DNA of 64,000 nucleotides. It comes from Intrasporangium sp. GTDB lineage: Bacteria > Actinomycetota > Actinomycetes > Actinomycetales > Dermatophilaceae. Below the pieces are notes generated by a model. That model did no database searches. It was not told the DNA's origin and was given only the letters and a program-made list of their open reading frames with translations. The position numbers were made by a program, and so were the translations under genes. Shown in pieces: positions 26,126 to 54,584 of the stretch (the stretch's first letter is position 1; the number at the start of each line of letters is the position of its first letter). The DNA is taken from NCBI RefSeq assembly GCF_040414665.1, contig NZ_JBEDUL010000010.1:10491-74490 (forward strand). Direction: 5' to 3'.

Positions 26126-26167
26126 CGGGTCCCAGCCCGGACGTGCCTTCCCGCTTAGGGTGGGACC

Positions 26168-26968
26168 GTGCTGCGTGACCCGGACCTGATACCCGAGCCG
26201 TGGCGCTGGCGGCAGAGGTTCCGGCCGCACCCCTTGGTGGCGCTGCCGCTCTTTCCCCTCGTCGGGTTCCTGGTCATGCTCGCCCGCGCGATCGACGAAC
26301 CCAGCGTCCAGGCTTGGGTCTGGGTGGCGCACCTGCTCGCACTGACTCTCGTCGCGTCCGTCGCGTCGCCGTGGCACCTGCCGCGGCGGCCGATCCACGA
26401 CCCGGTCGGGCGGACCATCACGTTCCCCGCCCGCGCCCGGCTCGGGCTGATGCCCCTCGGGCTCGTCATCTGGGGCGTGGTGCTGCTCGTCCACTTCGAG
26501 CTGATGCGCCTGCTCGTCGTCGACCGACAGATCCGCTTCGGGGAGATCGACGTGCCGTGGTGGCTGACGCTGCCCACGGGTTTCGTGATGATCGCGCTCG
26601 GGCTGTCCGTCGCACGCCCGCCGGAGCTGCACCAGCTCATGGTCGGGGTCGACGGCCTGCACTTCGTGCACGGCAGGCAGGGCTTCTCGGCGCAATGGGA
26701 CCACATGCTGCGGATCGTGCCCACCCTCGAGCACCGGGTGCACCGCTGCCTCGAGGTGCACGGTCCCGGCCTCGTCGCCCGCGACGAGCACGGGCATCGC
26801 GGGCGGCCGACCGTCAATGCAGACGTGCTCGACTCGGACGCGGTGCGCCTGTGGCTGACCCTCGAGCACTACTACCGGCATCCCGCCGACCGCGAGGAGC
26901 TGGGCACGTCAGTGTGCCGGCAGCGTCGCGCGCAGTGGCGCCGGGTGTTGCCGCGCGAGATGGTCTGA
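26168..26968 (+). CDS. Hypothetical membrane protein (266 aa)
   Basis: High GC3. It has 4-5 hydrophobic helices followed by a soluble C-terminal domain. I recognise no family. Confidence 0.6.
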   Translation: MLRDPDLIPEPWRWRQRFRPHPLVALPLFPLVGFLVMLARAIDEPSVQAWVWVAHLLALTLVASVASPWHLPRRPIHDPVGRTITFPARARLGLMPLGLVIWGVVLLVHFELMRLLVVDRQIRFGEIDVPWWLTLPTGFVMIALGLSVARPPELHQLMVGVDGLHFVHGRQGFSAQWDHMLRIVPTLEHRVHRCLEVHGPGLVARDEHGHRGRPTVNADVLDSDAVRLWLTLEHYYRHPADREELGTSVCRQRRAQWRRVLPREMV

Positions 26969-41032: not shown

Positions 41033-42268
41033 TCAGGGACTGGGGCGGATCGTTCCTGAGACCTCGCCGAGGCCGATCCGGGAGCTGCCCGGTCCCGGGG
41101 CCCAGGCCCTGATCGTCACGGTGTCGCCGTCCTCGAGGAAGCCGCGGGTCGAGCCGTCCTCGAGGACGAGCGGCTCGGCGCCGTTCCAGGTGAGCTCGAG
41201 CAGGCTGCCCCGCGTGCCCTTCTCGGGACCGCTGACGGTGCCCGAGCCGAAGAGGTCACCGTTGCGCAGGGAGGCGCCGCCCACGGTCAGGTGCGCGAGC
41301 ATCTGCACCGGTGACCAGTACATTCCGGCGTACGCCGGTCGGGAGACGACGGTGCCGTTGAGGGCGACCTCGAGGTGGAGGTCGAGCCCGAACGCCGGCC
41401 CCTCGAGATAGGGCAGGACGGCCGGCTCCTCCTGTCCTGGGAGGGCCACCCGGGCCTGCGCCAGCGCGTCGAGGGGCGTCACCCACGCCGAGATCGAGGT
41501 CGCAAAGGACTTGCCGAGGAAGGGGCCCAGCGGGACGTACTCCCACGCCTGGATGTCCCGCGCGCTCCAGTCGTTGAGGATGACGACGCCGAAGAGGTGG
41601 TCGACCGCCTCCTCGACGGAGACCCGCGTCCCGACCTCGGTGGCACCGCCCACGACATAGCCGAGCTCGGCCTCGATGTCGAGGCGGATGCTCGGGCCGA
41701 AGACCGGGGCGGGATCGCTCGGCGCCTTGCGCTGACCACTCGGGCGCACGACGTCGGTCCCCGAGACGACGACGGTGCCGGACCGCCCGTGGTAGCCGAT
41801 CGGCAAGTGCTTCCAGTTCGGCGGCAGCGCGGCATTGTCAGGGCGGAAGATCTTGCCGACGTTGGATGCATGGTCCTCGCTGGCGTAGAAGTCGACGTAG
41901 TCGGCGACCTCGATCGGCAGGTGCAGGGTGACGGAGTCGAGAGGGTGCAGATGTGGCTCGACGCGGGTGCGGTGCACGTCGTCCGTGAGAATCTCGGTGA
42001 GCCACGCCCGCGCGATGGTCCACGCCGGCCGGCCCAGCGCCAGGAACGCGTTGAGGCTCGCGGTCTGCCAGGCAGTCGCGAGATCGGGACCGGAACCCGC
42101 CTGACCGGCGTCGCGTCCGATCGCGGCGACGGCGCCGGCGTCGAGGACGACATCGCCGATCCTGACCCCGACCCGCCTCGTGGCGTCGCCGCTGGCGGAG
42201 AAGACTCCGTAGGGCAGGTTGTCGATGCCGAACTGATGGTCGACTGGGACGTCAAGCCACGTGGTCAC
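41033..42268 (-). CDS. fahA: Fumarylacetoacetase
   Basis: 411 aa. It has the N-terminal FAA-hydrolase domain (FGIDNLPYGVFS) and a C-terminal FAH fold. Confidence 0.9.
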   Translation of the reverse strand: MTTWLDVPVDHQFGIDNLPYGVFSASGDATRRVGVRIGDVVLDAGAVAAIGRDAGQAGSGPDLATAWQTASLNAFLALGRPAWTIARAWLTEILTDDVHRTRVEPHLHPLDSVTLHLPIEVADYVDFYASEDHASNVGKIFRPDNAALPPNWKHLPIGYHGRSGTVVVSGTDVVRPSGQRKAPSDPAPVFGPSIRLDIEAELGYVVGGATEVGTRVSVEEAVDHLFGVVILNDWSARDIQAWEYVPLGPFLGKSFATSISAWVTPLDALAQARVALPGQEEPAVLPYLEGPAFGLDLHLEVALNGTVVSRPAYAGMYWSPVQMLAHLTVGGASLRNGDLFGSGTVSGPEKGTRGSLLELTWNGAEPLVLEDGSTRGFLEDGDTVTIRAWAPGPGSSRIGLGEVSGTIRPSP

Positions 42269-43134
42269 GCCGTGGTCCTTTCAGGGAGGAGGCCGAGCGC
42301 CTTCAGCTCGGTCAGGGGGTCGAGGACGCCGCAACAGCCGAAGCCGGTGAACGACGCGCGCAGCCGGTCGATGTCCCCGGCGTCGAAGGCGGTCAGGCGC
42401 CCGACGAGGTCCTCGACGTCCGTCACCTCGAGAGTGCGCACGAGGTGTGCAGTGCCCGCCCGCTCGAGCGCGTCATGGGTGGCCACCAGGACGTTGAGCA
42501 AGCCATGCATGGGCTCCCCACCGCCGTCACCGCGCACGACATGGTGCAGGCCGCCGGTCAGCTTGAAGGCGAGGCCCCGCGCCACTGCTGCGTGCAGAAA
42601 GCCTGCCAGTGTCGCCTCGTCGGGCCACGGCCAGGTCGGCGTCTGGCCGGTGCGGAACTTGGCCCGGACGCGCGCGCCCTGGCGGGCCGCGTCGGCGATG
42701 TCGTCCAGCTCCTGCGCCTGGCCCGGCCCGCGTCCGACCTCGACCACGACAGGTGGCCCGAGCTCGAGCACCTCCCGCCAGTCTGCCGACCAGCCGACCT
42801 CGACGCTCGAGACGTGCGCGGCGGACTCGTCGTGGAGCAGGCGGACCGCATCGGCCAGCGGCTCGAGCGGTCCACCCGGGCGCACGACGAGGCCGACCTG
42901 GATCGGGGAGCGCGCCGCACGAGGGTCCCGAGCTGCGAGGGCGGCCACCTCAGCCGCCGCGGTGGCGGGCACGAGCAGCGGTCCGAGCTGAGCGGCATAC
43001 GGCCCGGCTTGGAGGTCGAGGTGCTCGCGCACGGCCACGTCCGTCGGAGCCAGCCCCGGCGGGAAGACGGCTGCATCGTCGACGAGGTGCTCGAAGATCC
43101 GCGCATGGTGGGGGAAGCCGGTCGACCTTGACAT
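42265..43134 (-). CDS. Hypothetical protein (289 aa) translationally coupled to fahA
   Basis: High GC3. Its stop overlaps the fahA start (ATGA). I recognise no family. Notable segments are AKFRTGQ and FKLTGGLHH. Confidence 0.7.
   Translation of the reverse strand: MSRSTGFPHHARIFEHLVDDAAVFPPGLAPTDVAVREHLDLQAGPYAAQLGPLLVPATAAAEVAALAARDPRAARSPIQVGLVVRPGGPLEPLADAVRLLHDESAAHVSSVEVGWSADWREVLELGPPVVVEVGRGPGQAQELDDIADAARQGARVRAKFRTGQTPTWPWPDEATLAGFLHAAVARGLAFKLTGGLHHVVRGDGGGEPMHGLLNVLVATHDALERAGTAHLVRTLEVTDVEDLVGRLTAFDAGDIDRLRASFTGFGCCGVLDPLTELKALGLLPERTTA
42987..43002 (-). repeat. Dispersed motif copy M11 (reverse; ccgtatgccgctcagc), inside the CDS
   Basis: Core with the G-to-C variant. It is in sense orientation to the minus-strand gene and is read as PYAAQL. 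Confidence 0.7.
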
Positions 43135-43214: not shown

Positions 43215-44501
43215 ATGGCGTACTACCGGGCAGCCGGCAACATCCCGCCCAAGCGACACACCCAACACCGCCGCGACGGAGGCGAGCTCTACTACGAGGA
43301 GCTCATGGGCGAGGAGGGCTTCTCCTCCGACTCGTCCCTGCTCTACCACCGCAATATCCCGTCGACCGTGTCGTCGTCGCGCGTCTGGGAGGTGCGAGAC
43401 CAGTCGACGACCCCGAACCACCCCTTGACCCCCCGGCACCTCAAGCTGCACGACCTCTTCGACGACGCCGCCGTGCGGTCGACCGACGTCGTGACGGGCC
43501 GACGGCTCGTCCTCGGCAACGGTGACGTGCGGATCTCCTACGCCGTCGCCGCCCAGCCCAGCCCCTGGTACCGGAATGCCATGGGCGACGAGTGTGTCTA
43601 CGTCGAGCGCGGTGCGGCTCACGTCGAGACGGTCTTCGGCGCCTTCGACGTGGGCGAGGGCGACTACGTCATCATCCCGCGCGCGACGACCCACCGGTGG
43701 CTCCCCGTCGAGGATGCGGCCAACCCGCTCCGGGCCTACTGCATCGAGGCCAACAGCCACATCTCCCCGCCGAAGCGTTACCTCAGCAGGTACGGCCAGC
43801 TGCTCGAGCACGCGCCGTACTGCGAGCGAGACCTGCGCGGACCCGCGGGGCCGCTGCTGGCAGAGGACACCGGGGCGAGCGCCGACGAGGAGACCGAGGT
43901 CTACATCAAGCACCGGGGCAGTGGGCCGGGTGGCGTCGTCGGGTCGATCCACGTGCTGCCCTTCCACCCACTCGACGTCGTCGGGTGGGACGGATGCCTC
44001 TACCCCTACGTGTTCAACGTCCGGGACTACGAGCCGATCACCGGCCGCGTGCACCAGCCGCCACCCGTACACCAGGTCTTCGAGGGGATGGGGTTCGTCG
44101 TCTGCAACTTCGTGCCACGCAAGGTCGACTACCACCCCCTGTCGATTCCCGTGCCGTACTACCACTCCAACGTCGACAGCGACGAGATCATGTTCTACGT
44201 CGACGGCGACTACGAGGCCAGGAAGGGGTCCGGCATCGGCCGCGGGTCGATCTCGGTCCACCCAGGCGGGCACGCGCACGGACCGCAACCCGGCGCCACC
44301 GAGGGGTCGATCGGCGTCGAGTTCTTCGACGAGCTGGCCGTCATGGTGGACACGTTCCGGCCGCTCGAGCTCGGTGAAGCCGGACTCGCAGCCGACGACG
44401 GCCTCTACGCCTCGTCGTGGTCGCGCGGGGCGGCCACGCAGGCGAGCGGTCAGCCGGCGGCTGGCCAGCAGGACTCCGACGGAGTCCACACGGAGGGGTG
44501 A
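43215..44501 (+). CDS. hmgA: Homogentisate 1,2-dioxygenase
   Basis: 428 aa. The N-terminus YYRAAGNIPPKRHTQHR and the cupin core with a His-rich metal site (SVHPGGHAHGP) support the call. Confidence 0.9.
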   Translation: MAYYRAAGNIPPKRHTQHRRDGGELYYEELMGEEGFSSDSSLLYHRNIPSTVSSSRVWEVRDQSTTPNHPLTPRHLKLHDLFDDAAVRSTDVVTGRRLVLGNGDVRISYAVAAQPSPWYRNAMGDECVYVERGAAHVETVFGAFDVGEGDYVIIPRATTHRWLPVEDAANPLRAYCIEANSHISPPKRYLSRYGQLLEHAPYCERDLRGPAGPLLAEDTGASADEETEVYIKHRGSGPGGVVGSIHVLPFHPLDVVGWDGCLYPYVFNVRDYEPITGRVHQPPPVHQVFEGMGFVVCNFVPRKVDYHPLSIPVPYYHSNVDSDEIMFYVDGDYEARKGSGIGRGSISVHPGGHAHGPQPGATEGSIGVEFFDELAVMVDTFRPLELGEAGLAADDGLYASSWSRGAATQASGQPAAGQQDSDGVHTEG

Positions 44502-45205
44502 TGGCCGGACCCCTCGACGGGAGAGCCTCTCCTGTCAGCGAACGGCGCGCGCGGGAGAGCTCCAAGACGCTGGATCGCGGCATCCAGCTGCTCGAGCTGC
44601 TGGCCCGTCCGGGGCGTGCCAGCGGCCTGACCATCACCGAGCTGGCCGCGGAGCTCGGCGTGGGCCGTCCCGTCGTCTATCGGCTCGTCACGGCCCTCGA
44701 GGCCCACCACCTCGTCACCAGGCGGCCAGGTGGACGGGTCCGCCTCGGCCTCGGAGTGAGTCGGCTCGCCGCCGCGGTCACGCCCCTCGTCCGCTCCGAG
44801 GCCCGCCCGATCCTGCAGGAGCTGGCTGACTCGGTCGGCGCCACCGCCCACCTGACAGTGTCCGAGGGCGAGGAAGCGCTCGCCCTGGTCGTCGTCGAGC
44901 CGACGTGGACGGACTTCCACGTGGCCTATCGCTCCGGTGCCCGCCACCCCCTCGACCGGGGAGCGGCTGGCCGAGCGATCCTCGGCGGCCGGTCCGGCTC
45001 CGCGGACCTCGTCGTCAGCGTCGGTGAGCTCCAGTCCGGGGCCCACGGGCTCGCCGTCCCCGTCCTCCCGCCGACCGAGGCGGGTCAACCGGACCGTGTC
45101 GTCGAGGCGTCCGTGGGCGTGGTCGCACTCGAGCCGATCGACCCCGCCTCGGCCGGACCGCGGCTCGAGCGAGCCGCTCGGGCTCTCTCGACGATCCTGA
45201 CCTGA
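44501..45205 (+). CDS. IclR family transcriptional regulator
   Basis: The ATG overlaps the hmgA stop by 1 nt. The N-terminal wHTH reads LDRGIQLLELLARPGRASGLTITELAAELGVGRPVVYRLVTALE. Confidence 0.88.
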   Translation: MAGPLDGRASPVSERRARESSKTLDRGIQLLELLARPGRASGLTITELAAELGVGRPVVYRLVTALEAHHLVTRRPGGRVRLGLGVSRLAAAVTPLVRSEARPILQELADSVGATAHLTVSEGEEALALVVVEPTWTDFHVAYRSGARHPLDRGAAGRAILGGRSGSADLVVSVGELQSGAHGLAVPVLPPTEAGQPDRVVEASVGVVALEPIDPASAGPRLERAARALSTILT

Positions 45206-45230
45206 CGGACGTGCGCGCCCAACCGGGGCG

Positions 45231-45260
45231 GGCTGGCGAGCGGGCCAGCCTCTCGGTTTT
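45231..45260 (+). terminator. Intrinsic terminator after iclR
   Basis: GGCTGGC-gagcgg-GCCAGCC (7-bp GC stem) is followed by tctcggTTTT. Confidence 0.6.
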
Positions 45261-45262
45261 CT

Positions 45263-45291
45263 GGGACAGGGCATGTGGCCTTCCTTACACT
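45263..45291 (+). promoter_or_regulatory. Candidate sigma-70-type promoter for the downstream five-gene operon
   Basis: -35-like GGGACA, a 17-nt spacer, then -10 TACACT (TANNNT), about 70 nt upstream of ATG 45361. The surrounding stretch is visibly less GC-rich. Confidence 0.3.
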
Positions 45292-45360
45292 TCCGATAGG
45301 CGTCACACACCGAAGTCACCGGTTCACCCGGCCGGTGGCGAGACATCAAGGCGAGCCAAC

Positions 45361-46953
45361 ATGCCGAGACGTACCCCGCGCTCCAGTGGCAACAACGACG
45401 TCCGCGATCCGGCCTACGACGCGCTCATCAGCCTGCACGCCCAAACCGGCCTTCGGGGTGCCACGGACCCCGGCCTCATCCCGGGGTTTCACAGCCTGCC
45501 AACCGGCGAGGCGCTACGGATGGTCGCCGCCGCGCCGGCCGACCAGATCCCCGCGTCCGCACGACTGGGAGTCCTGGGCGACCTGGCCCGCGCTGGGTTC
45601 CCCGGCCGCGCGGACGACGAGGAGGCCTATCTCGAGCTGGCGAGGTCGGTGGACCAGGTCAGGATCAAGAACGGCAAACCCATCGACCCGGCGACCCTGC
45701 TGACGGATCTCGAGCAGGCGTTGCGAGATCGCGTCCCCTTCTACAAGACGCACACCGGCGGTGCCCTGGAGCACCAAGAGGCCGCCCTTGTCGGGGAAGA
45801 CGTGTGCACCGTGCGCACCGTAGAGGTCGGTGGGCTCGAGGCCACGTCCATCTATGCGGAGTTCCACACCAACGCGCCTTTCGAGACCGTGGCGGAGTGG
45901 ATCGATCCCCGCAGCTGGCCAAGGCGCGGGCCGATGCTGTTCAAGCGCATGACGGTGGTCGACGCCGCCGAACCGGTGGCGCTGGGTCCGCCCGGCTCAC
46001 CGCACTGGCATGGCGTCTTCCACGAGGAGGTCCAGCTGCTCCAGCGGGTCAACACATTGCTGCACTGCGACTTCTGGCGCCAGGGCAATGAGGCAGCCGG
46101 GATGACCTACGACCTCAGCCTCAGCCTCGACAACGAGATCGACGTCGACCGGGGCTTCCTCCTCGTCACCAACGCCGGGGGAGACCTCACGGTCAAGGCG
46201 CTCAAGATCGTCGGCTTCCGGCTCGACGTCTGGGACACCGTGGCCGGATGGGTCTGTCCGTCGTGGACCGACTTCGTTCGCGCTGCCGCCGAAGGCGGCA
46301 CCGAGTCGTCCGCTTACCCGGCCTCTGGAGGGCATATCGGCCCTCCCGGCCGCTCCCCCTTGGGAGAGACCTTCGATGCGTGGGTCGAGTTCCTCGGTGA
46401 CTCGGCACGGGCCTATGTCGACCTCTTCGAGGACGTGACAACGCGGGTGAGCACGAAGGGGGTCTCCGCGGCCGAGTGCCTCGACGACGAACGGAAGCTC
46501 TGGTCGCGGCTCGCGAAGGACTGGTCCCAGGCCTGGACGCACGGCATGAGCACCCTGGAGGAGGTCTCGCGCGAGGGGCTCGATGCCGGTTTCATGCCCC
46601 CGGGCGTTCCTCCCGATCGGGGTCGCGGAGCCGCGAGGACGATGACCTCGGGTGCGCCCGCCGGCCCACCTGTCGATGCAGCCGAGGGCACGATCATCCA
46701 GATTCCCGGGCTCGGCCCGTCGGTGCGGCTCCGGGTCTCCGACCTCGTCTCCATCGAAGCCGGGGGTGCCATGATCCGCGCAGGCGCGGTCCGCGTCAGC
46801 GTCGAGCAGCTCGCACAGGGACAGTACGGCGTCCACCTTGATGTCAGCGACCCCACGGCGGCAGCCGGCCTCTACGTGGGCGAGCTGATGAGCGCGGACG
46901 GGACCATGCGCACCCCGATCCAGCTCTACGTCTCCAGAGCCACTGGGGCGTGA
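45361..46953 (+). CDS. Hypothetical protein (530 aa): unassigned N-terminal region, START/SRPBCC-like middle, helical + beta-rich C-terminal module
   Basis: High GC3 from ATG 45361; upstream of that the track ORF looks non-coding. I recognise no family. It is the first gene of a tightly coupled operon. Confidence 0.7.
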   Translation: MPRRTPRSSGNNDVRDPAYDALISLHAQTGLRGATDPGLIPGFHSLPTGEALRMVAAAPADQIPASARLGVLGDLARAGFPGRADDEEAYLELARSVDQVRIKNGKPIDPATLLTDLEQALRDRVPFYKTHTGGALEHQEAALVGEDVCTVRTVEVGGLEATSIYAEFHTNAPFETVAEWIDPRSWPRRGPMLFKRMTVVDAAEPVALGPPGSPHWHGVFHEEVQLLQRVNTLLHCDFWRQGNEAAGMTYDLSLSLDNEIDVDRGFLLVTNAGGDLTVKALKIVGFRLDVWDTVAGWVCPSWTDFVRAAAEGGTESSAYPASGGHIGPPGRSPLGETFDAWVEFLGDSARAYVDLFEDVTTRVSTKGVSAAECLDDERKLWSRLAKDWSQAWTHGMSTLEEVSREGLDAGFMPPGVPPDRGRGAARTMTSGAPAGPPVDAAEGTIIQIPGLGPSVRLRVSDLVSIEAGGAMIRAGAVRVSVEQLAQGQYGVHLDVSDPTAAAGLYVGELMSADGTMRTPIQLYVSRATGA

Positions 46954-46956
46954 CGA

Positions 46957-49900
46957 GTGAGTGATCTCGCGGCCTCCGAGGATCCGAGGTTCACGCGGCT
47001 GCTCGAACGGCTTCTCACCGCGGCCGAGGCCTCGCTCGCCGCCGGTGATCTCGAGCCGGCCCGTGCGACCGCCGAGGAGGTCCGCGCAGTCGACCCGGAC
47101 AACGAGCGGGCGAGGAGGATCCTGCGGCAGCTCGCCGCCCGTCAACGGGCACCGTCCGGCGAGCGAGCCCTGATGACCCTCTTGTTCTCCGACCTGGTCG
47201 GCTCGACGTTGCTTTCCGAGCGCGTGGAGCCCGAGCAGCTCCGGGACCTGTTCTCCTTCTACCGGGCGGCCGCCCGCGAGGCGGTGGAGCGCTACAGCGG
47301 ACAGCTCATCCAGTTCTCCGGCGATGGCGTGCTCGCCGGCTTCGGGTACCCGGAGCCACACGAGGACGACGCCCGGCGTGCCGTCCTCGCGGGCCTCGAC
47401 CTTGCTGTGGCGATGCGGGACGGGCGGGCCGAGATGGAGCGGCGCGTCGGCGCGGCCGCGGAGGTGCGGGTGGGGATCCACACCGGGCGGGTCGTCGTCA
47501 CCGACTTCAGCAACGACGCGAGTGTGGCCGAGCGGGACTCCATCGTCGGCATCACCCCGAACCTGGCGGCGCGGATCCAGGCCAATGCTGAGCCGGGCAC
47601 GGTGGTGATCAGCGACGTCACACAGCAGCTCGTGGACACCGACTTCTACCTGCAGTCCCGGGGGGAGCACCAGTTCAAGGGCATCAGCCGGCCGGTCGAG
47701 GTCTTCGCCGTCGAAGGACCCCGTTTCGCGGCGGCGCGTTTCGCGGCGGAACGCTATCGCAAGTCGGGACTGGTCGGACGGGACGAGCCACGGACGGCGA
47801 TGCTCGAGGCGTGGCAGTCGATCCGGACGGACGAGGGCGGCGTGCGGCCTGGCGCCTCTTTTCTCGTCGTCGGGGAAGCGGGAATCGGCAAGTCCCGCTT
47901 GGTTGCCGAGGTTCTGGACCGGGTCGAGGCCAGCGCCGGCCGGGTGCTCGGGGCGGGGTGCCTGCCCTACTACGCCAACGTGTCGTTGTGGCCGATCGCC
48001 CAGATGCTCGAGAGGGCCCTCGGCCTCTCGGGCGGGCCGGAGCGCAAGCTGCGGGCACTCGTTGCGCACCTGGCCGATCTGGACCTGGACCTTGGACGCA
48101 GTGTCCCGTTCCTCGCAGCGCTCGTCGGGGTGGCACCCTCTGACGCGTACCCGCGGCCGGAGCTGGACCCGATCGCCTTCCTGGACGAGACGCTGAACCA
48201 CGTCGTCGAGTGGCTGACCGCCGTCGCTGCGAGCACGCCCCACCTGCTCGTCGTCGAGGACCTGCACTGGGCCGACCCGTCCACCCTCGCGCTGCTCGGT
48301 CGTCTCGTGGGCCGGGCGCCGAGCGGGCTGCTCACGGTGGCCACCACTCGTGACTCCCACCTCGTACCCTGGACGCAGGCTGTCGAGGTCGTCGAGCTCG
48401 ACCATCTTGACCGGGACGAAGCCATGAGCCTCGTCACGAACCTCGTTGCAGGGCAGGACCTCTCCGATGACAGGTGCGCGTCGATCGTCGCCCAGGCCGA
48501 CGGGATCCCGCTCTACATCGAGGAGCTCACCCGGTCGTGTCTCGCCGAGGACCGAGGCGAGCCGATGCCGCTGCGTCTGCAGGAGCTGTTCACCTGGCGC
48601 TTCCGGGCTCCCGGAGTCGACCTGCGCGTCGTGCAGGTCGCCGCGACGGTGGGCCCGACCTTCCCCGCCGGCCTCGTGTCGGCGGTGATCCGCGACGAGG
48701 CGCTCGTGATCCAGCAGCTGGAGGTGCTCGTCGACCACGGGATCATCGAACGCGGTGACCCGGAGTCGGGGAGGTATCGCTTCCGGCACGCACTCATGCG
48801 TGACGCGGCCTACGAGACACAGGTGCTCGACGTACGCCGCGAGACGCACGCCAACGTGGCGGAAGCCATGGCAGCCCAGGGCGCCGAGCCCGCTCTCATC
48901 GCCGCCCACCTCGACCTGGCAGGTATGGCTGAGCGGGCCGCCGCGCTCTACGTCGCGGCTGCTCAGGGTGAGCAGGCCCGGGGAGCGCACACGGAGGCCG
49001 CGAGGCTCGTCACGCGGGCCCTCGAGCTCTATGAGGGCCTTCCGGAGTCAGAGGAGCGGGACCTCGCCGAGCTCGGCGCCCGCATGCTGCGCGTGCTGAG
49101 CATCAGCTCGATGCGTGGCTACGCGGCTCCTGAGGTACAGGCGGACCACAGCCGTGCCGAGGCACTGACCACGGCGCTGGGCAGCCGACCCGAGGTCCTG
49201 CCGGCGGTCATCGGGATCTACGGCTACCGCCTGACGAATGGTGACGTGCCGACAGCTCGCATGCTCATCGAGCGCCTCATGGGCATGATCCGTCAGCCAG
49301 CCTTCGCCTGGTTCGACCCCGAGGTGGAGGAATGTGCAGGATATGTCGAGCTGTACCAGGGAAACCTCGGTGCGGCGCGGACCTACCTCGAACGGTCGAT
49401 GGCCGGCTACGAGGGACGCCCGGATGACGCCGTCATCTCTCCGTACTGGCCTCTGCCCAACGACCCCAAGGCCGCGTCGGCGATCGGCCTGGCCTGCATC
49501 GCCGCGCTGCAGGGTGACGTCGAGGCAGCGTCGCGGTGGGAGCACCAAGCGGTCGAGCGGGCCGAGGGCCTTGGGTTTCCACGGGGCCCGTTCACGCTCG
49601 GTTTCGTCAAGACCTACGCCGCCTGGATCCGGCAGTTCCTCGGCGACGACGTCGGCGCACGGCGGCTGGGGGCTGAGGTCGTGCAGGTGGGACAGCAGCA
49701 CGGCTATGCCTACTGGATGATGCTCGGCTCGGCCTACGTTGCCACGGCCCTTCCGGGGGGCGAGCCCGACCGTGAGTTCCTCGAGCAGACGGTGGCCTCG
49801 TTGCGCCTCATGGGTCACGAGGCGTTCCTCGGGTCGATGCTCGCCCATCTCGCCCGCCTCCATGCGCAGGCCGGCGATGTCGACCGCGCCAGCGAGCTGA

Positions 49901-50220
49901 TCGACGAAGCCGTCGAGGCCGTCCACAAGAGCGGTGAGTATCTCCACCTACCCGAGCTGCTCCGGCAGCGAGCCGGCTTCGCACTGAGCCGCGGTGCACA
50001 TGCTGATGACGTCGTGGCAGACCTTCAGGGCGCCGTCGACGTGGCCGTCGAGCAGGAGGCGACCGTCTCCTACCTTCGTGCCGCCCTCGAGCTGGCTCGG
50101 CTGCCGGAGGACCGACGCCCCATCGACTGGCGCATCACCCTCGACCAGGCCAGGCAGAGCCTGCCGCCGTCATTCCGGTCGGCCGAGAGCGCGGCCGCCG
50201 ACGCCCTGCTCTCCGACTGA
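46957..50220 (+). CDS. Class III nucleotidyl (adenylate/guanylate) cyclase fused to a P-loop STAND NTPase and TPR-like repeats
   Basis: Cyclase motifs FSDLVGST, FSGDGVLAGFG, VGIHTG and NLAARIQ. Walker A is VVGEAGIGKSRLV. The long helical-repeat C-terminus has no HTH. The gene starts 3 nt after the previous stop. Confidence 0.88.
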   Translation: MSDLAASEDPRFTRLLERLLTAAEASLAAGDLEPARATAEEVRAVDPDNERARRILRQLAARQRAPSGERALMTLLFSDLVGSTLLSERVEPEQLRDLFSFYRAAAREAVERYSGQLIQFSGDGVLAGFGYPEPHEDDARRAVLAGLDLAVAMRDGRAEMERRVGAAAEVRVGIHTGRVVVTDFSNDASVAERDSIVGITPNLAARIQANAEPGTVVISDVTQQLVDTDFYLQSRGEHQFKGISRPVEVFAVEGPRFAAARFAAERYRKSGLVGRDEPRTAMLEAWQSIRTDEGGVRPGASFLVVGEAGIGKSRLVAEVLDRVEASAGRVLGAGCLPYYANVSLWPIAQMLERALGLSGGPERKLRALVAHLADLDLDLGRSVPFLAALVGVAPSDAYPRPELDPIAFLDETLNHVVEWLTAVAASTPHLLVVEDLHWADPSTLALLGRLVGRAPSGLLTVATTRDSHLVPWTQAVEVVELDHLDRDEAMSLVTNLVAGQDLSDDRCASIVAQADGIPLYIEELTRSCLAEDRGEPMPLRLQELFTWRFRAPGVDLRVVQVAATVGPTFPAGLVSAVIRDEALVIQQLEVLVDHGIIERGDPESGRYRFRHALMRDAAYETQVLDVRRETHANVAEAMAAQGAEPALIAAHLDLAGMAERAAALYVAAAQGEQARGAHTEAARLVTRALELYEGLPESEERDLAELGARMLRVLSISSMRGYAAPEVQADHSRAEALTTALGSRPEVLPAVIGIYGYRLTNGDVPTARMLIERLMGMIRQPAFAWFDPEVEECAGYVELYQGNLGAARTYLERSMAGYEGRPDDAVISPYWPLPNDPKAASAIGLACIAALQGDVEAASRWEHQAVERAEGLGFPRGPFTLGFVKTYAAWIRQFLGDDVGARRLGAEVVQVGQQHGYAYWMMLGSAYVATALPGGEPDREFLEQTVASLRLMGHEAFLGSMLAHLARLHAQAGDVDRASELIDEAVEAVHKSGEYLHLPELLRQRAGFALSRGAHADDVVADLQGAVDVAVEQEATVSYLRAALELARLPEDRRPIDWRITLDQARQSLPPSFRSAESAAADALLSD

Positions 50221-50221
50221 C

Positions 50222-52315
50222 ATGGCGGGGCGGCGGGTGGTCATCCTGGGGGGCGGCATGGCCGGCCTCACCACTGCCTGGGAACTGAGCTCGGGCGACT
50301 GGCGGAAGGAGTTCGACTCCATCACCGTGTACCAGCGCGGCTGGCGCCTGGGTGGGAAGGGTGCGAGCAGCCGCGGCCCTCATGGCCGCATCGAGGAACA
50401 CGGGCTGCACGTCCTCCTCGGCTATTACGACGCGACCTTTCGGCTGCTTCGGGAGGTGTACGCGGAACTCGACCGGACCGTGACCGACCCCGGTTGTCCG
50501 ATCCGGGACTGGCGGGAGGCATTCTCGCCCAGCGATGACGTGGGCCTCGCCGACCACGACGGCACCACGTGGAGTCACTTCGTGACGCAGTTCTCACGCA
50601 ACGGGGACCTGCCGGGCGAGCCGGGTGCCGAGGACCGGCCACTGGAGCCGCTGGGCGTCGCCTTACGGGCGTTGCGGCTGCTCGCCGACTTCGACGAGGC
50701 GGTCGCACCGGAGCCAGCCGGGGCGGGCGTCTATCTGAGCGCGTCCGCAGTGCCGAGGCCGGCAGGATCGGCGATCCGGACCCTCGTCCGGGCCGGAAGC
50801 CGCACCACCATGGCCGGGCTCCTCGTGCTGCTCGATCGGGCCGCAGGTGTGGTCACCGGACCGGGGCTCGGCGCTCCGGTCGTGGATGCCGTCACGGCTG
50901 GGCTGCAGAGGTGGCGTGATGACCTTCGCGCGGCGGTCCAGGACACTCCGGCGGCCCGGCGAACCTGGCAGCTGGTCGATCTCGTCGCGACGAATCTCCA
51001 AGGCATGGTCGTCGACGGACTGCTGTCGGGGACCGCCTACGAGCGGATCGACCACCTGGACTACCGCGAGTGGCTGGCCCTGCACGGCGCGGCTCGAGAG
51101 ACGCGCGACTCTCCCATCGTCCGAGGGATGTACGACCTCACCTTCGCCTATGAAGGGGGTGACCGGTCACGCCCGCGATTTGCCGCGGGACTGGGACTCC
51201 AGCTCGCCAGCCGCATGCTCTTCGACTACAAGGGCTCGATCTTCTGGAGGATGCAGGCCGGGATGGGCGAGGTCGTCTTCGCCCCCCTGTACCAGGCGCT
51301 CGTCCAGCGGGGCGTCGAGTTCACGTTCTTCCGGCGGCTCTCGCGCCTGAGCCTCGCCGATGATCGGTCGATCAGGTCGATCAGGTCGATCGGGTCGATC
51401 GGGTCGATCGAGCTCGTCCGGCAGGCGGAGCCGGCCATCGGGCAGCACGCCTACGATCCGCTCGTGCGTCACGGCGGCCTCCCGTGCTGGCCCGATCGGC
51501 CGCTTGTCAACCAGCTCGACCACGATCCCGGGGTCCATGCTGAGTCGCACTGGGCACGGGATGACGGCCGGCCGGTCGAGACGCTGCGCGCCGGCGAGGA
51601 CTTCGACGTGGCAGTGCTCGCGGTCTCCCTGGGCATGATCCCGCACGTCGCCGGCGAGCTGCTCGCGGCCGATCCCGCGTGGCGCAGGATGGTCGACCAC
51701 GTCGCGACGGTAGGGACTCGCGCCGCGCAGCTGTGGTTCCGCTCGACCGAGGCACAGCTGGGCTGGAATGGTCGGCCCGGAGTGACCCTGACCGGGTTCG
51801 GCAACACCTTTGACACGTGGGCGTCGATGTCCCACCTGCTGTCCCGTGAGGGATGGCCCGAGCACGACGGACCACGTGCCCTCGCGTACCTGTGCGGCGC
51901 GATGCCCGACGGCGACCCGGCCTCGGCTGGTCGGCGCGTCCGGGGGGAGCTGACCCGCTTCCTCGACGAGGAGTCCGGCGCCTTGTGGCCGGCGGTCTCG
52001 GGTCCCCAAGGCTTCCGGTGGGAAGCGCTGTGGGACGACCGGGACCGCATCGGGCCGGAGCGGCTCGACGCCCAGTACCTGAGAGCGAACCTCGATCCCT
52101 CCGACCGCTATGTCCAGTCACTGCCCGGGTCAGGGAGACACCGGATCGCTCCCGACCGCACCGGCTTCACGAACCTGGCCGTGGCGGGGGACTGGACGGC
52201 CTGCGGGCTCGACGCCGGTTGCGTCGAGGCTGCGACCCGGTCCGGAGTGCTCGCGGCGAGAGCCATCCGGTCCGGAACGTGTGGGCAGACCCCTGCCGAG
52301 GAGGTCGTCGGGTGA
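50222..52315 (+). CDS. FAD/NAD(P)-binding oxidoreductase, phytoene/zeta-carotene-desaturase-like (amine-oxidase fold), 697 aa
   Basis: Dinucleotide motif VVILGGGMAGLTTA, then GWRLGGKGAS...IEEHGLHVLLGYY, and C-terminal NLAVAGDWTACGLDAGCVEAATRSG. The ATG lies 1 nt after the cyclase stop. Confidence 0.8.
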   Translation: MAGRRVVILGGGMAGLTTAWELSSGDWRKEFDSITVYQRGWRLGGKGASSRGPHGRIEEHGLHVLLGYYDATFRLLREVYAELDRTVTDPGCPIRDWREAFSPSDDVGLADHDGTTWSHFVTQFSRNGDLPGEPGAEDRPLEPLGVALRALRLLADFDEAVAPEPAGAGVYLSASAVPRPAGSAIRTLVRAGSRTTMAGLLVLLDRAAGVVTGPGLGAPVVDAVTAGLQRWRDDLRAAVQDTPAARRTWQLVDLVATNLQGMVVDGLLSGTAYERIDHLDYREWLALHGAARETRDSPIVRGMYDLTFAYEGGDRSRPRFAAGLGLQLASRMLFDYKGSIFWRMQAGMGEVVFAPLYQALVQRGVEFTFFRRLSRLSLADDRSIRSIRSIGSIGSIELVRQAEPAIGQHAYDPLVRHGGLPCWPDRPLVNQLDHDPGVHAESHWARDDGRPVETLRAGEDFDVAVLAVSLGMIPHVAGELLAADPAWRRMVDHVATVGTRAAQLWFRSTEAQLGWNGRPGVTLTGFGNTFDTWASMSHLLSREGWPEHDGPRALAYLCGAMPDGDPASAGRRVRGELTRFLDEESGALWPAVSGPQGFRWEALWDDRDRIGPERLDAQYLRANLDPSDRYVQSLPGSGRHRIAPDRTGFTNLAVAGDWTACGLDAGCVEAATRSGVLAARAIRSGTCGQTPAEEVVG
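51366..51410 (+). repeat. Five tandem copies of the 9-nt unit GGTCGATCR, in frame (SIRSIRSIGSIGSI)
   Basis: ggtcgatca x2 then ggtcgatcg x3, lying inside the oxidoreductase CDS. Each unit carries GATC. Confidence 0.9.
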
Positions 52316-52935
52316 GTGGGACGCTGGACGCAGCGTCCCAGGTCGCGCACCTCGTCGGAGAGGTGCAGCGCTTCGGGTTCCTCAGCGCCGCGTCCGTGGT
52401 CAAGCGTTACACCGAGATCGTCGACCGGGCCATCGCCGGCGCCGGCCTTCCCGAGTCCGACCCGGTCGCGCGAGGACCCGCTGGCGATGCGTTGCTCGAC
52501 GCTGCCTCCCGGTTGGCCGAGGCGGGCCTCACGTCCCTGGAGACGATGACGGCCCTGCTGGGCGACAGTCTCCGACCGAACCCCGGAAGAGGCGGACGGG
52601 AGACGGTGGTCCTTCCCCCTGCAGCCGGAGGCTCCACCTCGCTGGCCCCATTGTGGCTGCACAACGCAACCGACGCGTCCGTGCGACGAGTCGAGCTCCA
52701 CGCGACGGCGCTCACCTCGTCCTCGGGAGCCGTCATCCCAGCCGCTGCCCTGAGCCTCTCACCCTCGAACGTCGACGTCCTGGCCGCCATGAGCCACCAG
52801 CAGGTCACTGTCCAGGTGACCGTGCCCCCCGGCCAGGCGCCAGGTCACTACCACGGAGTCGTCGTCCTGTCGGCGGCACCGGACGAGGCGATGGCACTGC
52901 TGCTCGAGGTCCGGACGATGGACGGGGAGCCGTGA
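52312..52935 (+). CDS. Hypothetical protein (207 aa): helical N-terminus + beta-rich C-terminal domain
   Basis: The GTG start overlaps the oxidoreductase stop (GTGA). High GC3. Its architecture resembles the C-terminal third of the 530-aa protein. Confidence 0.65.
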   Translation: MSGTLDAASQVAHLVGEVQRFGFLSAASVVKRYTEIVDRAIAGAGLPESDPVARGPAGDALLDAASRLAEAGLTSLETMTALLGDSLRPNPGRGGRETVVLPPAAGGSTSLAPLWLHNATDASVRRVELHATALTSSSGAVIPAAALSLSPSNVDVLAAMSHQQVTVQVTVPPGQAPGHYHGVVVLSAAPDEAMALLLEVRTMDGEP

Positions 52936-53966
52936 GCGGCCCGAGCCCTCAGTTCCTCGGGCAGCTCGAGACGTACGCGTCCCAGGCACGCGTCGTCGCG
53001 GCGTCCTACCTGCCCGAAGGTGCATTCTCGCCCTACCTCCGGCTCCCGGCCACCGAGTATCTCGACCGGGGAGGGAAGGGGCTGCGACCTGCTCTGTGCC
53101 TGGCCACCTGCAGCGCGTTCGGCGGCGAGGTGGAGGCCGCCCTGCCCTCGGCCGCCGCCATCGAGCTGCTCCACACGGCGTTCCTCGTCCACGACGACGT
53201 CGAGGACGACAGCGACCTCCGGCGCGGCGAGCCCACCCTGCACCAGAAGTACGGACCCGCGCTGGCGATCAACGCGGGCGACGGCCTCGCGGTGGTCGCG
53301 CTGAGTGCGCTGCGGGAGAACGAGCGCACGATCGGGCGGCCGCTCGCCGCCAAGGTCTGGTCCGAGTTCGACTTGATGGCACGGCAGACCGTCGATGGCC
53401 AGGCCTGCGAGCTCGGGTGGCAGCGTGATCGGCGGACCGACCTCACCCCGGACGACTACCTCGAGCTCATCATGAAGAAGACCTGCTGGTACACGACCCT
53501 CCTGCCGCTGCGGGTCGGCGCGCTGATCGGGTCGAGGGGGACGCTGGACCTCGAGCCAATGCTCCGGTTCGGGTTCTTCCTCGGCGCGGCCTTCCAGATC
53601 CGGGACGACGTGCTCAATCTCACCGGGTCGCAGGCCCTCTACGGCAAGGAGGCCCTCGGCGATCTGCGTGAGGGGAAGCGCACGCTGATGCTCATCCACC
53701 TGCTGGCGGCGGCCAACCCGCGAGAGCGCGAGCAGGTCGTCGGCTACCTCGCCCTCGACCCGGCGGAGCGCTCGGGTGAGGTTGCAGAACACCTCTTGGC
53801 CCTGATGGACGACCACGGCAGCGTCGCCTTCGCGGACGAGTTCGCCCGGGGCATTGCCCGGGCGGCGGGAGTCGCATTCGAGGAGGCCTTCGCTGCCGCG
53901 CCCGACTCGCCGGCCCGCCGCTTCATCCGCGAGCTCGTGACCTACATGGTGGAACGGGACCGCTGA
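52932..53966 (+). CDS. Polyprenyl diphosphate synthase (GGPP-synthase-like trans-prenyltransferase)
   Basis: First Asp-rich motif LVHDDVEDDSDLRRG and second FQIRDDVLNL. The GTG start overlaps the previous stop (GTGA). Confidence 0.88.
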   Translation: MSGPSPQFLGQLETYASQARVVAASYLPEGAFSPYLRLPATEYLDRGGKGLRPALCLATCSAFGGEVEAALPSAAAIELLHTAFLVHDDVEDDSDLRRGEPTLHQKYGPALAINAGDGLAVVALSALRENERTIGRPLAAKVWSEFDLMARQTVDGQACELGWQRDRRTDLTPDDYLELIMKKTCWYTTLLPLRVGALIGSRGTLDLEPMLRFGFFLGAAFQIRDDVLNLTGSQALYGKEALGDLREGKRTLMLIHLLAAANPREREQVVGYLALDPAERSGEVAEHLLALMDDHGSVAFADEFARGIARAAGVAFEEAFAAAPDSPARRFIRELVTYMVERDR

Positions 53967-53972
53967 GGCGGG

Positions 53973-54584
53973 TCATCGCTGGACGACGGGCGCACCCTCG
54001 AGCCGGACGCCGGCCTCCTCGAGCTGCGCCAGCGCGGCCTCCGTCGTCTTCGGTGCGACCCCGGCCGTGAGGTCGAGCAGCACGGTGGTGTCGAGTCCCT
54101 CGCGACGGGCATCGAGCGCCGTGGCTCGCACGCAGTGGTCCGTGGCGATCCCGACGACGTCGACGTGCGAGACGCCGCGCTCCGCGAGCCAGTCCGGGAG
54201 AGTCGAGCTGTCCGGGCCGATCCCGTGGCATTCAAAGCCGCTGTAGGCAGCCGAGTACTCGCCCTTGTGGAACACGGCTTGGACCGAGTCCAGGGCGCCG
54301 GCGAGGTTCGGGTGGAAGGCGGAGCCCGCGCTTCCGGCCACGCAGTGGACCGGCCACGTGTCGATGTAGTCCGGGTCCGCCGAGAAGTGGTCGCCCGGGT
54401 CGATGTGCCAGTCGGCCGTGGCGATGATGGTGTCGTAGGCGGCCCCGCGCTCGGCAACGTACGCCGAGATGGCCTGCGCGACAGCGGCGCCACCCTCGAC
54501 AGCGAGCGAGCCGCCTTCGCAGAAGTCGTTCTGGACGTCGACGATGATGAGCGCGCGGCGCTCGCTGGGGCCGGACGTGGACAT
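53973..54584 (-). CDS. pncA: Nicotinamidase/pyrazinamidase
   Basis: ALIIVDVQNDFCEGGSLAV, and the catalytic Cys in GIATDHCV. Isochorismatase fold. Confidence 0.88.
   Translation of the reverse strand: MSTSGPSERRALIIVDVQNDFCEGGSLAVEGGAAVAQAISAYVAERGAAYDTIIATADWHIDPGDHFSADPDYIDTWPVHCVAGSAGSAFHPNLAGALDSVQAVFHKGEYSAAYSGFECHGIGPDSSTLPDWLAERGVSHVDVVGIATDHCVRATALDARREGLDTTVLLDLTAGVAPKTTEAALAQLEEAGVRLEGAPVVQR

Follow-up and report, generated by a model that had tools for sequence, protein, structure and literature searches.

A conserved five-gene cassette in Intrasporangium joins a cyclase-STAND-TPR protein to a long flavoprotein and a prenyl synthase

Class III nucleotidyl cyclases function as dimers, and STAND NTPases such as MalT oligomerise upon inducer binding. 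The two are joined in Mycobacterium tuberculosis proteins of the Rv0386/Rv1358/Rv2488c type, LAL-like proteins in which a cyclase, an ATPase and TPR repeats are followed by a LuxR-type helix-turn-helix (HTH) domain; Castro et al. are said to have reported in 2005 that Rv0386 carries a Gln in place of the adenine-binding Lys. Comparable domains or layouts are found in the TOMM kinase/cyclase fusions (TIGR03903), in the STAND switches of the MalT/LAL/AfsR kind and, among antiviral systems, in Pycsar and Avs. Here we describe a cassette of five genes in a stretch of 64,000 nucleotides from Intrasporangium sp. (contig NZ_JBEDUL010000010.1; the whole stretch is called the window hereafter), in which a cyclase-STAND-TPR protein is encoded together with a long flavoprotein, a prenyl synthase and two proteins without a sequence family. 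The five genes all lie on the + strand and span 45361-53966, the GC content of the surrounding window being 70%:

45361..46953, + strand: gene 1, 530 aa, a four-part protein in its AlphaFold2 (AF2) model
46957..50220, + strand: gene 2, 1087 aa, a short N-terminal helical region followed by a cyclase domain, an AAA_16 domain and a TPR-like region
50222..52315, + strand: gene 3, 697 aa, a flavoprotein of the amine-oxidase/CrtI-HpnE superfamily with a large insertion between the segments that bind flavin adenine dinucleotide (FAD)
52312..52935, + strand: gene 4, 207 aa, a hairpin and an Ig-like beta-sandwich in its AF2 model
52932..53966, + strand: gene 5, 344 aa, a short-chain trans-prenyl diphosphate synthase resembling synthases of geranylgeranyl diphosphate (GGPP)

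We tentatively read this cassette as a conserved and self-contained module of signalling and metabolism, in which a hydrophobic (isoprenoid) metabolite would feed a STAND-gated cyclase, and we give this reading a probability of roughly 40%. At that level it is backed by synteny, by intact cyclase, Walker and Asp motifs, and by a recurrent theme of hydrophobic ligands. Full-text literature searches found no description of the cassette, in keeping with the initial annotation, which could fit the combination to no described system; it therefore appears to be undescribed, while its parts belong to known superfamilies.

The domains of gene 2 are well delimited. A class III nucleotidyl cyclase domain (Guanylate_cyc, PF00211) covers aa 73-252 (nt 47173-47712) with 68.2 bits against a cut-off of 21.9, and an AAA_16 STAND NTPase domain covers aa 272-456 (nt 47770-48324), also with 68.2 bits, against a cut-off of 32.6. 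They are followed by a long TPR-like C-terminal sensor region at about aa 560-1087, where individual TPR matches stay below their cut-offs and which aligns to the repeat region of TIGR03903; the NB-ARC match is weak, and no HTH family is present among the Pfam matches of the protein. The catalytic residues of the cyclase are kept almost throughout 71 cassette-linked orthologues (D79 in 70, D123 in 70, N202 in 68 and R206 in 71), as are the Walker A motif GxxGxGK[ST] with K312 (71/71) and the Walker B residue D435 (70/71). Gene 2 thus combines the domain score, the metal Asp pair and the Asn/Arg of a class III cyclase with the Walker motifs and repeat sensor of a STAND NTPase, and the cyclase is probably active. 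Both the Pfam matches and the conservation among orthologues agree with the first description of the protein as an intact cyclase with a P-loop STAND domain, TPR-like repeats and no DNA-binding output. The nucleotide product is uncertain because the Lys position that specifies adenine is occupied by Gln and is variable in the family: at this position, 119, the 71 orthologues have Q in 40 cases, K in 9, S in 7 and H in 5, so that the strict Lys/Asp pair of adenylate cyclases is missing from gene 2 even though D194 is present. Within the protein, conservation is highest in the cyclase domain and lowest in the C-terminal TPR region.

Each of the described relatives differs from gene 2 in some essential component. 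The M. tuberculosis proteins share its order of cyclase, STAND ATPase and TPR-like repeats, but gene 2 has no C-terminal LuxR-type HTH and is translationally coupled within an enzyme operon, and we know of no link of those proteins to a flavoprotein or a prenyl synthase. The alignment to TIGR03903 is extensive (aa 102-1047 against model positions 321-1265, E 4.9e-119); however, the score of 399 bits lies under the cut-off of 705.75, the kinase part (model 1-320) is absent, and the window has no TOMM precursor or cyclodehydratase genes. With MalT, LAL and AfsR proteins gene 2 shares an NTPase of AAA_16/NB-ARC type and a C-terminal repeat sensor, and by analogy its oligomerisation is likely driven by an inducer, whereas its output is a nucleotidyl cyclase and not a DNA-binding domain, and the putative inducer-making enzymes are co-translated with it. 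Finally, the cyclase matches the PycC profiles of Pycsar (E 7.6e-14) and the layout of effector, NTPase and TPR resembles Avs, but the other four genes have no PADLOC match and no domain binding cyclic nucleoside monophosphates (cNMP), no Avs or other STAND defence model was matched in PADLOC, and the cassette carries conserved metabolic enzymes.

The five genes are packed exactly as had been proposed from the open reading frames (ORFs). The stop codon of gene 1 (TGA, 46951-46953) is separated by a 3-nt gap from the GTG of gene 2 at 46957, the stop of gene 2 (50218-50220) by a 1-nt gap from the ATG of gene 3 at 50222, and GTGA overlaps join genes 3 and 4 (52312-52315) as well as genes 4 and 5 (52932-52935). 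The start of gene 1 is at 45361 and not at the upstream GTG at 45211, as fits the N-termini of 37 homologues. A scan for relatives of gene 3 with one genome per species gave 527 positive genomes, and the other genes of the cassette were counted in the best 80 flavoprotein loci. Gene 5 is present in 78 of these, gene 2 in 74 (66 times directly upstream and on the same strand), gene 4 in 74 and gene 1, as detected by BLAST, in 53; five of the six loci without gene 2 end at contig borders. The order of the five genes recurs in dozens of Actinomycetota genomes with unrelated flanks, for example in Ornithinimicrobium pekingense, Blastococcus and metagenome-assembled genomes (MAGs) of Acidimicrobiia, among others. 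Cultured strains that carry the cassette include O. pekingense DSM 21552, Pedococcus cremeus CGMCC 1.6963, Blastococcus sp. CT_GayMR16 and Mycobacterium sp. JS623. When the flanking ORFs of 81 loci were clustered, using a gene filter based on GC content at third codon positions (GC3), no other family was found in more than about 10 of the 81, and since no further neighbour family recurs, the unit is self-contained. These data show that across Actinomycetota the five genes, which point the same way and are translationally coupled, pass between genomes as one unit, by inheritance as well as by exchange, and the self-contained operon postulated at first is thereby borne out by synteny in many genomes.

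A different arrangement is found in the mycobacterial type, where the cassette consists of two divergent arms, with genes 4 and 5 on one side and genes 1', 2' and 3' on the other. Gene 1' measures about 475 aa and is recognised by profile comparison only (hhalign 97%, E 4.5e-11). The two mycobacterial-type cassettes are:

L092, 1798-12306: Mycobacterium sp. JS623, plasmid pMYCSM01
L082, 3093-13370: M. hubeiense

In both, gene 1' is followed by an extra gene of about 170 aa, and the flavoprotein gene immediately by a saccharopine-dehydrogenase-like gene; the JS623 cassette, carried by a mobilizable megaplasmid, adjoins a recombinase. In O. pekingense, an island-like region upstream of the cassette (L001 1-9402) harbors a STAND gene of AAA_16/NACHT/TPR type, two IS110 transposases, a Phd/ParE toxin-antitoxin pair and an aminoglycoside-resistance-like gene; a Crp gene also lies near this cassette, which is not a general feature.

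Gene 3 is the best-conserved gene of the cassette, its homologues being 64-70% identical across orders. The Rossmann motif GxGxxG reads GGGMAG (aa 10-15), and scores above the cut-offs were obtained for PF01593 (Amino_oxidase, 47.3 against 19.8) and PF13450 (NAD_binding_8, 41.4 against 21.9), as in other FAD flavoproteins of the amine-oxidase type. The label "phytoene/zeta-carotene-desaturase-like" given in the initial annotation is accurate at the level of the superfamily but not beyond it, all NCBIfam equivalog scores being far below cut-off (HpnE 68.2 against 283, PDS 29.9 against 569 and ZDS 26.4 against 622) and the cassette having no SQS_PSY-type gene, that is, no partner squalene or phytoene synthase. 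With HpnE, PDS and ZDS, which are COG3349 flavoproteins, gene 3 shares an N-terminal dinucleotide-binding motif and a C-terminal amine-oxidase segment, and JGI gives its homologues the COG3349 name. This likeness is confined to the FAD-binding parts, and among PDB sequences only the Rossmann motif was matched. In contrast to these enzymes, gene 3 is about 230 aa longer, has no HpnC/D or CrtB partner, and has conserved partners of its own, namely the STAND protein and SRPBCC or acetoacetate-decarboxylase (ADC)-like proteins. One local feature distinguishes the copy in the window:

51362..51410, + strand: in-frame 9-bp tandem repeat in gene 3 (GATCGGGTC, 5.6 copies), found with TRF

This repeat adds SIRSIRSIG to the protein with respect to all aligned orthologues, and may be a slippage-prone site.

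Full-length homologues of gene 3 are also encoded on plasmids of Gram-negative bacteria (Proteobacteria and Bacteroidota), where most of them adjoin a gene for an AAA_16 STAND signalling protein. On a Qingshengfaniella plasmid (L093 8992-15706), the flavoprotein is fused to an ADC-like domain and followed by a cyclase-AAA_16-TPR gene and then by an overlapping Crp/Fnr gene. A divergent kinase-AAA_16-GAF-cyclase gene lies beside the flavoprotein gene in Rufibacter (L094), and a divergent kinase-AAA_16-GAF-PAS-histidine kinase gene in Azospirillum (L095/L097), whose locus also comprises an ADC-family gene, a FadL-like porin and a second flavoprotein paralogue; in Catenovulum (L096) the partner is an ADC-family gene only. 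The outputs of these Gram-negative STAND proteins are therefore a cyclase, a Ser/Thr kinase or a His kinase, and genes 1, 4 and 5 are absent from these loci. Because the pairing crosses phyla without genes 1, 4 and 5, the oldest linkage is that of the flavoprotein and the STAND protein. The comparison further suggests that the partner with a hydrophobic pocket varies, being either an SRPBCC protein or an ADC-like barrel, and that the prenyl synthase is an actinobacterial addition. The initial emphasis on a STAND switch combined with prenyl synthesis and desaturation therefore needs to be shifted: the deepest conserved linkage is between the flavoprotein and the STAND protein, and it persists where the prenyl synthase is absent.

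Gene 5 matches polyprenyl_synt (PF00348) over its full length, with 201.5 bits against a cut-off of 27, and its closest solved structure is the GGPP synthase of Thermus thermophilus (1wmw, 168 bits). It shares the full-length domain, the first Asp-rich motif DDxxD (D88, D89 and D92) and RRG with short-chain trans-prenyl synthases such as 1WMW and archaeal IdsA, and both DDxxD and RRG are invariant in 81 cassette-linked orthologues. Of the two Asp-rich motifs announced by the initial annotation, the first is present as described, but the second (aa 225-229) reads DDxxN rather than DDxxD, unlike in those synthases: the first two residues (D225 and D226) are invariant, and N229 is conserved in 75 of the 81 orthologues. 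Gene 5 is accordingly a trans-isoprenyl diphosphate synthase by domain and motifs, whereas its scores are below every NCBIfam cut-off for a specific synthase (IdsA 188.7 against 468, GGPP_syn 168.7 against 500, CrtE 118.8 against 460, and family-2 encapsulin cargo4 184.9 against 450), and its chain length is a prediction. Nearly all orthologues also have a Phe four residues ahead of the first motif (position -4). The second-best NCBIfam match raised the idea of an encapsulin cargo, which we rejected given the sub-cut-off score, the SRPBCC rather than HK97 fold of gene 1 and the lack of a shell gene.

Gene 1 has no match in Pfam, NCBIfam or PDB sequence searches, as anticipated by the remark that it belongs to no nameable family. 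It is identical (100%) to a hypothetical protein of Intrasporangium sp., and it belongs to a small family, of which a set of 1.84 billion proteins contains 278 representatives. The AF2 model of the whole protein (predicted local distance difference test, pLDDT, 81; predicted TM-score, pTM, 0.72) divides into a helical domain at the N-terminus (aa 17-141), a helix-grip domain of SRPBCC/START type (aa 149-310, nt 45805-46290, with pLDDT around 90), a hairpin of long helices (aa 333-408) and a beta-sandwich of Ig-like type (aa 442-524, nt 46684-46932). For the middle domain, Foldseek matched TTHA0849, Bet v 1, norcoclaurine synthase and TcmN, the PDB and viral libraries both giving matches, and many SRPBCC structures were retrieved with probability 1.0 and E-values down to 1.2e-4; the START/SRPBCC-type middle part that had been suspected from the sequence is thereby confirmed. 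The protein has the helix-grip fold with a pocket that characterises the SRPBCC/START superfamily (TTHA0849, Bet v 1/PR-10, COQ10-type proteins and TcmN ARO/CYC; target TM-score up to 0.67), and binding of a ligand is predicted from this model. Unlike these proteins, gene 1 has no sequence-family membership, and its pocket domain is one of four, the others being the helical N-terminal part, the hairpin and the Ig-like sandwich. A possible metal site formed by His/Cys/Asp-rich motifs of the SRPBCC domain was weakened by the loss of these residues in the mycobacterial-type homologues.

Gene 4 gave only sub-threshold beta-sandwich matches in Pfam and NCBIfam. Its AF2 model consists of a helical hairpin (aa 3-84, of low confidence) and a confidently modelled Ig-like beta-sandwich (aa 98-201, nt 52603-52914), with Foldseek matches to GH123 N-terminal, sialidase-linker and PapD-like beta-sandwiches. 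As modelled, gene 4 repeats the hairpin and Ig-like module that makes up the C-terminal half of gene 1. Distant variants encode the SRPBCC (345 aa), hairpin (98 aa) and beta-sandwich (137 aa) parts of gene 1 in separate genes, for example at locus L011 (5330-10802, a JGI metagenome contig), a STAND-less variant of six genes in which the three parts accompany the flavoprotein, a gene 4-like gene and the prenyl synthase; the hidden Markov model of gene 4 matches the 137-aa fragment there. The designation of genes 1 and 4 as two unassignable proteins is consequently correct as regards sequence families, but the two are not unrelated, since they share this module. Both evolve fastest in the cassette, gene 4 ahead of all others. 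The L011 variant is inserted in a suf Fe-S assembly cluster (Rrf2, SufC, SufS, NifU ... Rieske, SufB), and a second contig has the same context.

Within Intrasporangium, two versions of most of the cassette are found at the same chromosomal site:

45187..53028: two-haplotype block, genes 1-4 and the first ~100 nt of gene 5, from blastn and tblastn comparisons with L035, L067 and L013

In the sister Intrasporangium loci L035 and L067, the flanks and gene 5 are 87-89% identical to the window in nucleotides (86-95% in amino acids), whereas genes 1-4 have only about 70% nucleotide identity, corresponding to 44, 65, 64 and 40% identity of the respective proteins. L012 and L013 carry the haplotype of the window throughout. 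The breakpoints, at about 45187-45306 and 52797-53028, coincide with a dip in the GC3 of genes 1-4 (0.84-0.86, versus 0.91 for gene 5 and the flanks). Genes 1-4 have thus been swapped as one block, and gene 5 has not.

Starting from the dimeric action of class III cyclases and the inducer-dependent oligomerisation of STAND NTPases, we propose the following mechanism for the cassette as a metabolite-fed signalling module. A prenyl diphosphate that is short and all-trans, most likely GGPP (C20), would come from gene 5, and the flavoenzyme of gene 3 would oxidise, desaturate or reduce a substrate that is hydrophobic and probably derived from isoprenoids. Gene 1 would hold or present this hydrophobic molecule in its START/SRPBCC pocket, and the hairpin and Ig-like modules of genes 1 and 4 may tether the enzymes to the TPR region of gene 2, the fast-evolving sensor. 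Binding of the ligand or partner would then trigger ATP-dependent, MalT-like oligomerisation of the STAND protein, by which the N-terminal cyclase domains could dimerise and make a cyclic nucleotide, to be read by Crp-type receptors encoded elsewhere. The theme of a hydrophobic ligand is suggested by the predicted SRPBCC fold of gene 1, by the ADC-like barrel found instead in Gram-negative bacteria and by the FadL-type channel nearby in Azospirillum. The Crp/Fnr gene that overlaps the cyclase-STAND gene in Qingshengfaniella argues for a cyclic nucleotide as a real output, and the fusion and fission of gene 1, the module shared by genes 1 and 4, the block swap and the fast evolution of gene 1, gene 4 and the C-terminal TPR region, compared with the slowly evolving cyclase, are all consistent with a physical coupling of the products of genes 1-4.

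Several observations weigh against this mechanism. The likeness of gene 3 to isoprenoid desaturases is limited to the FAD-binding segments; moreover, the Gram-negative loci have no prenyl synthase, so the substrate of the flavoprotein need not be an isoprenoid. From the Pfam and NCBIfam matches of the five genes, the unit has no head-to-head prenyl synthase, terpene cyclase or prenyltransferase, and GGPP is left without an obvious acceptor because no enzyme in the unit commits it. No conserved cNMP receptor was found beside the actinobacterial cassette in the neighbour clustering of the 81 loci, and the STAND gene is absent at a few loci (L057 and L011). The protein-protein contacts, finally, are proposed from genomic patterns alone.

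Alternatively, the five genes may form an ordinary operon for a terpenoid or another specialised lipid. Genes 5, 3 and 1 would in that case make a modified isoprenoid, with the SRPBCC protein acting as a cyclase or chaperone, and gene 2 would be a pathway regulator or scaffold like LAL or AfsR, with a cyclase in exchange for the HTH; the product would be structural or protective, and would not be sensed. A prenyl synthase and a CrtI/HpnE-superfamily flavoprotein are typical parts of such pathways, the fold matches of gene 1 include the catalytic SRPBCC cyclases TcmN and norcoclaurine synthase, and actinobacterial biosynthetic clusters commonly hold STAND/LAL regulators. Nevertheless, there is no terpene synthase, phytoene/squalene synthase or prenyltransferase to commit GGPP, the flavoprotein-STAND linkage persists at loci without a prenyl synthase, gene 5 behaves as an interchangeable part in the haplotype swap, and gene 2 is not a regulator gene standing apart but sits mid-operon, translationally coupled to its neighbours. 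We therefore regard such an operon as unlikely. A canonical carotenoid or hopanoid cluster had already been discounted for want of a phytoene or squalene synthase or a terpene cyclase in the unit, and indeed none of CrtB/CrtY, HpnC/D and Shc was found among the five genes or their conserved neighbours.

A role in defence is somewhat less plausible still. Under this hypothesis the cassette would be an anti-phage or abortive-infection island in which gene 2 is an Avs-like STAND sensor with a Pycsar-like cyclase effector, and genes 1, 3, 4 and 5 are accessory or effector genes that, for example, perturb membrane or isoprenoid pools after infection. The effector-NTPase-TPR architecture and the PycC match fit this, as do the haplotype replacement with fast-evolving small proteins and TPR region, the deviant GC3, and the company that the cassette keeps elsewhere: IS110 transposases, a ParE/Phd pair and another STAND gene in O. 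pekingense, a recombinase beside it on the mobilizable mycobacterial megaplasmid, and a PDDEXK nuclease, a patatin-like lipase and a recombinase at the Rufibacter locus. However, PADLOC gives generic cyclase matches only, and none for genes 1, 3, 4 and 5, the unit has no cNMP-activated effector, and the two enzymes keep 64-76% identity between orders, a strong conservation that would be unusual in defence genes; the cassette of the window is flanked by housekeeping genes and has no phage genes near it. Least probable is a pherotype-like typed system of isoprenoid signal and receptor, conceptually like ComQXPA, in which genes 1-4 would co-diverge into incompatible types while a generic prenyl donor enzyme stays constant: it would suit the way in which two haplotypes of genes 1-4, ~70% identical, are framed by flanks of 87-89% identity and a conserved gene 5, and in which divergence is greatest in genes 1 and 4 and at the sensor end of gene 2. 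However, the cassette encodes no exporter, membrane receptor or secreted peptide, its five products all look cytoplasmic, the types seen are two only and come from a few MAGs, and simple horizontal transfer via flanking homology explains the pattern equally well.

The borders of the unit in the window agree with those first assigned to it. Two elements lie between it and the upstream gene:

45230..45261, + strand: intrinsic-terminator-like hairpin and T-tract, from a terminator scan (8-bp stem with 6 GC pairs, tail CTCGGTTTTC)
45263..45291, + strand: promoter-like element (-35 GGGACA at 45263-45268, 17-nt spacer, -10 TACACT at 45286-45291)

The hairpin (45230-45251) with its T-tract, which had been claimed as a terminator, was recovered by the scan; it closes an upstream IclR-family gene (44417-45205, with IclR domains) and marks the left edge of the unit. 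The promoter-like element lies about 70 nt upstream of the ATG of gene 1. A formal sigma-70 scan called no promoter upstream, as GGGACA-17 nt-TACACT reaches 8/12 versus the 9/12 required. The ACA of the -35 and the whole TACACT are invariant in an alignment of five related loci, the diverged haplotype included, and because of this invariance the putative promoter, proposed earlier as a -35/-10-like element, is supported. Two Crp-type palindromes (TGTGA-N6-TCACA) with 2 mismatches each lie side by side at 45274-45307, overlapping the putative promoter; they are two of only five such matches in the 64-kb window, and both fall in the 155-nt region upstream of gene 1. As a Crp operator they are weak; the pattern is not enriched in the window, and we do not rely on it.

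On the downstream side, the unit is bordered, as previously noted, by a convergent isochorismatase/pncA-type gene (53973-54584), which is followed by a NAPRTase gene. The remainder of the window is ordinary core chromosome, with prfB-like, ftsE-like, LigD, pyruvate carboxylase, tyrosine-catabolism and RNase PH genes, and domain annotation of its ORFs gave no further isoprenoid or cNMP genes. No known RNA or riboswitch was found in or around the operon. A plasmid or mobile-element copy of this DNA was sought by megablast of 8.8 kb against plasmids, with no match. Two coding-like ORFs of the window have no Pfam family: one of 269 aa (26159-26968, + strand) and one of 289 aa (42265-43134, - strand), the latter lying between fumarylacetoacetase and homogentisate-dioxygenase-like genes and having 82-86% amino acid identity in related genomes.

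Actinobacteria, including mycobacteria, have many fusions of class III cyclases to STAND ATPases, and the signals that activate them are essentially unknown. The cassette encodes the proteins that likely make or present such a signal in the same operon as the cyclase-STAND protein, which makes the question of candidate ligands testable with five genes, and it would connect isoprenoid metabolism with cyclic-nucleotide signalling. Three protein families not characterised before are also defined by it, those of gene 1, gene 4 and the long flavoprotein, the last with relatives in at least 527 species-level genomes. A bolder extension, which we think improbable as a whole, is that the long flavoprotein and the AAA_16 STAND protein constitute an ancient, cross-phylum two-part sensor, in which a flavoenzyme acting on a hydrophobic metabolite gates oligomerisation and a swappable output (cyclase, Ser/Thr kinase or His kinase); actinobacteria would have recruited a GGPP synthase and START/Ig-like adaptors to make and read an endogenous isoprenoid second signal, with co-adapted types exchanged as a block. 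If true, such a sensor would be a signalling principle without earlier description, and the flavoprotein-STAND pairing in other phyla does suggest a more general sensor design.

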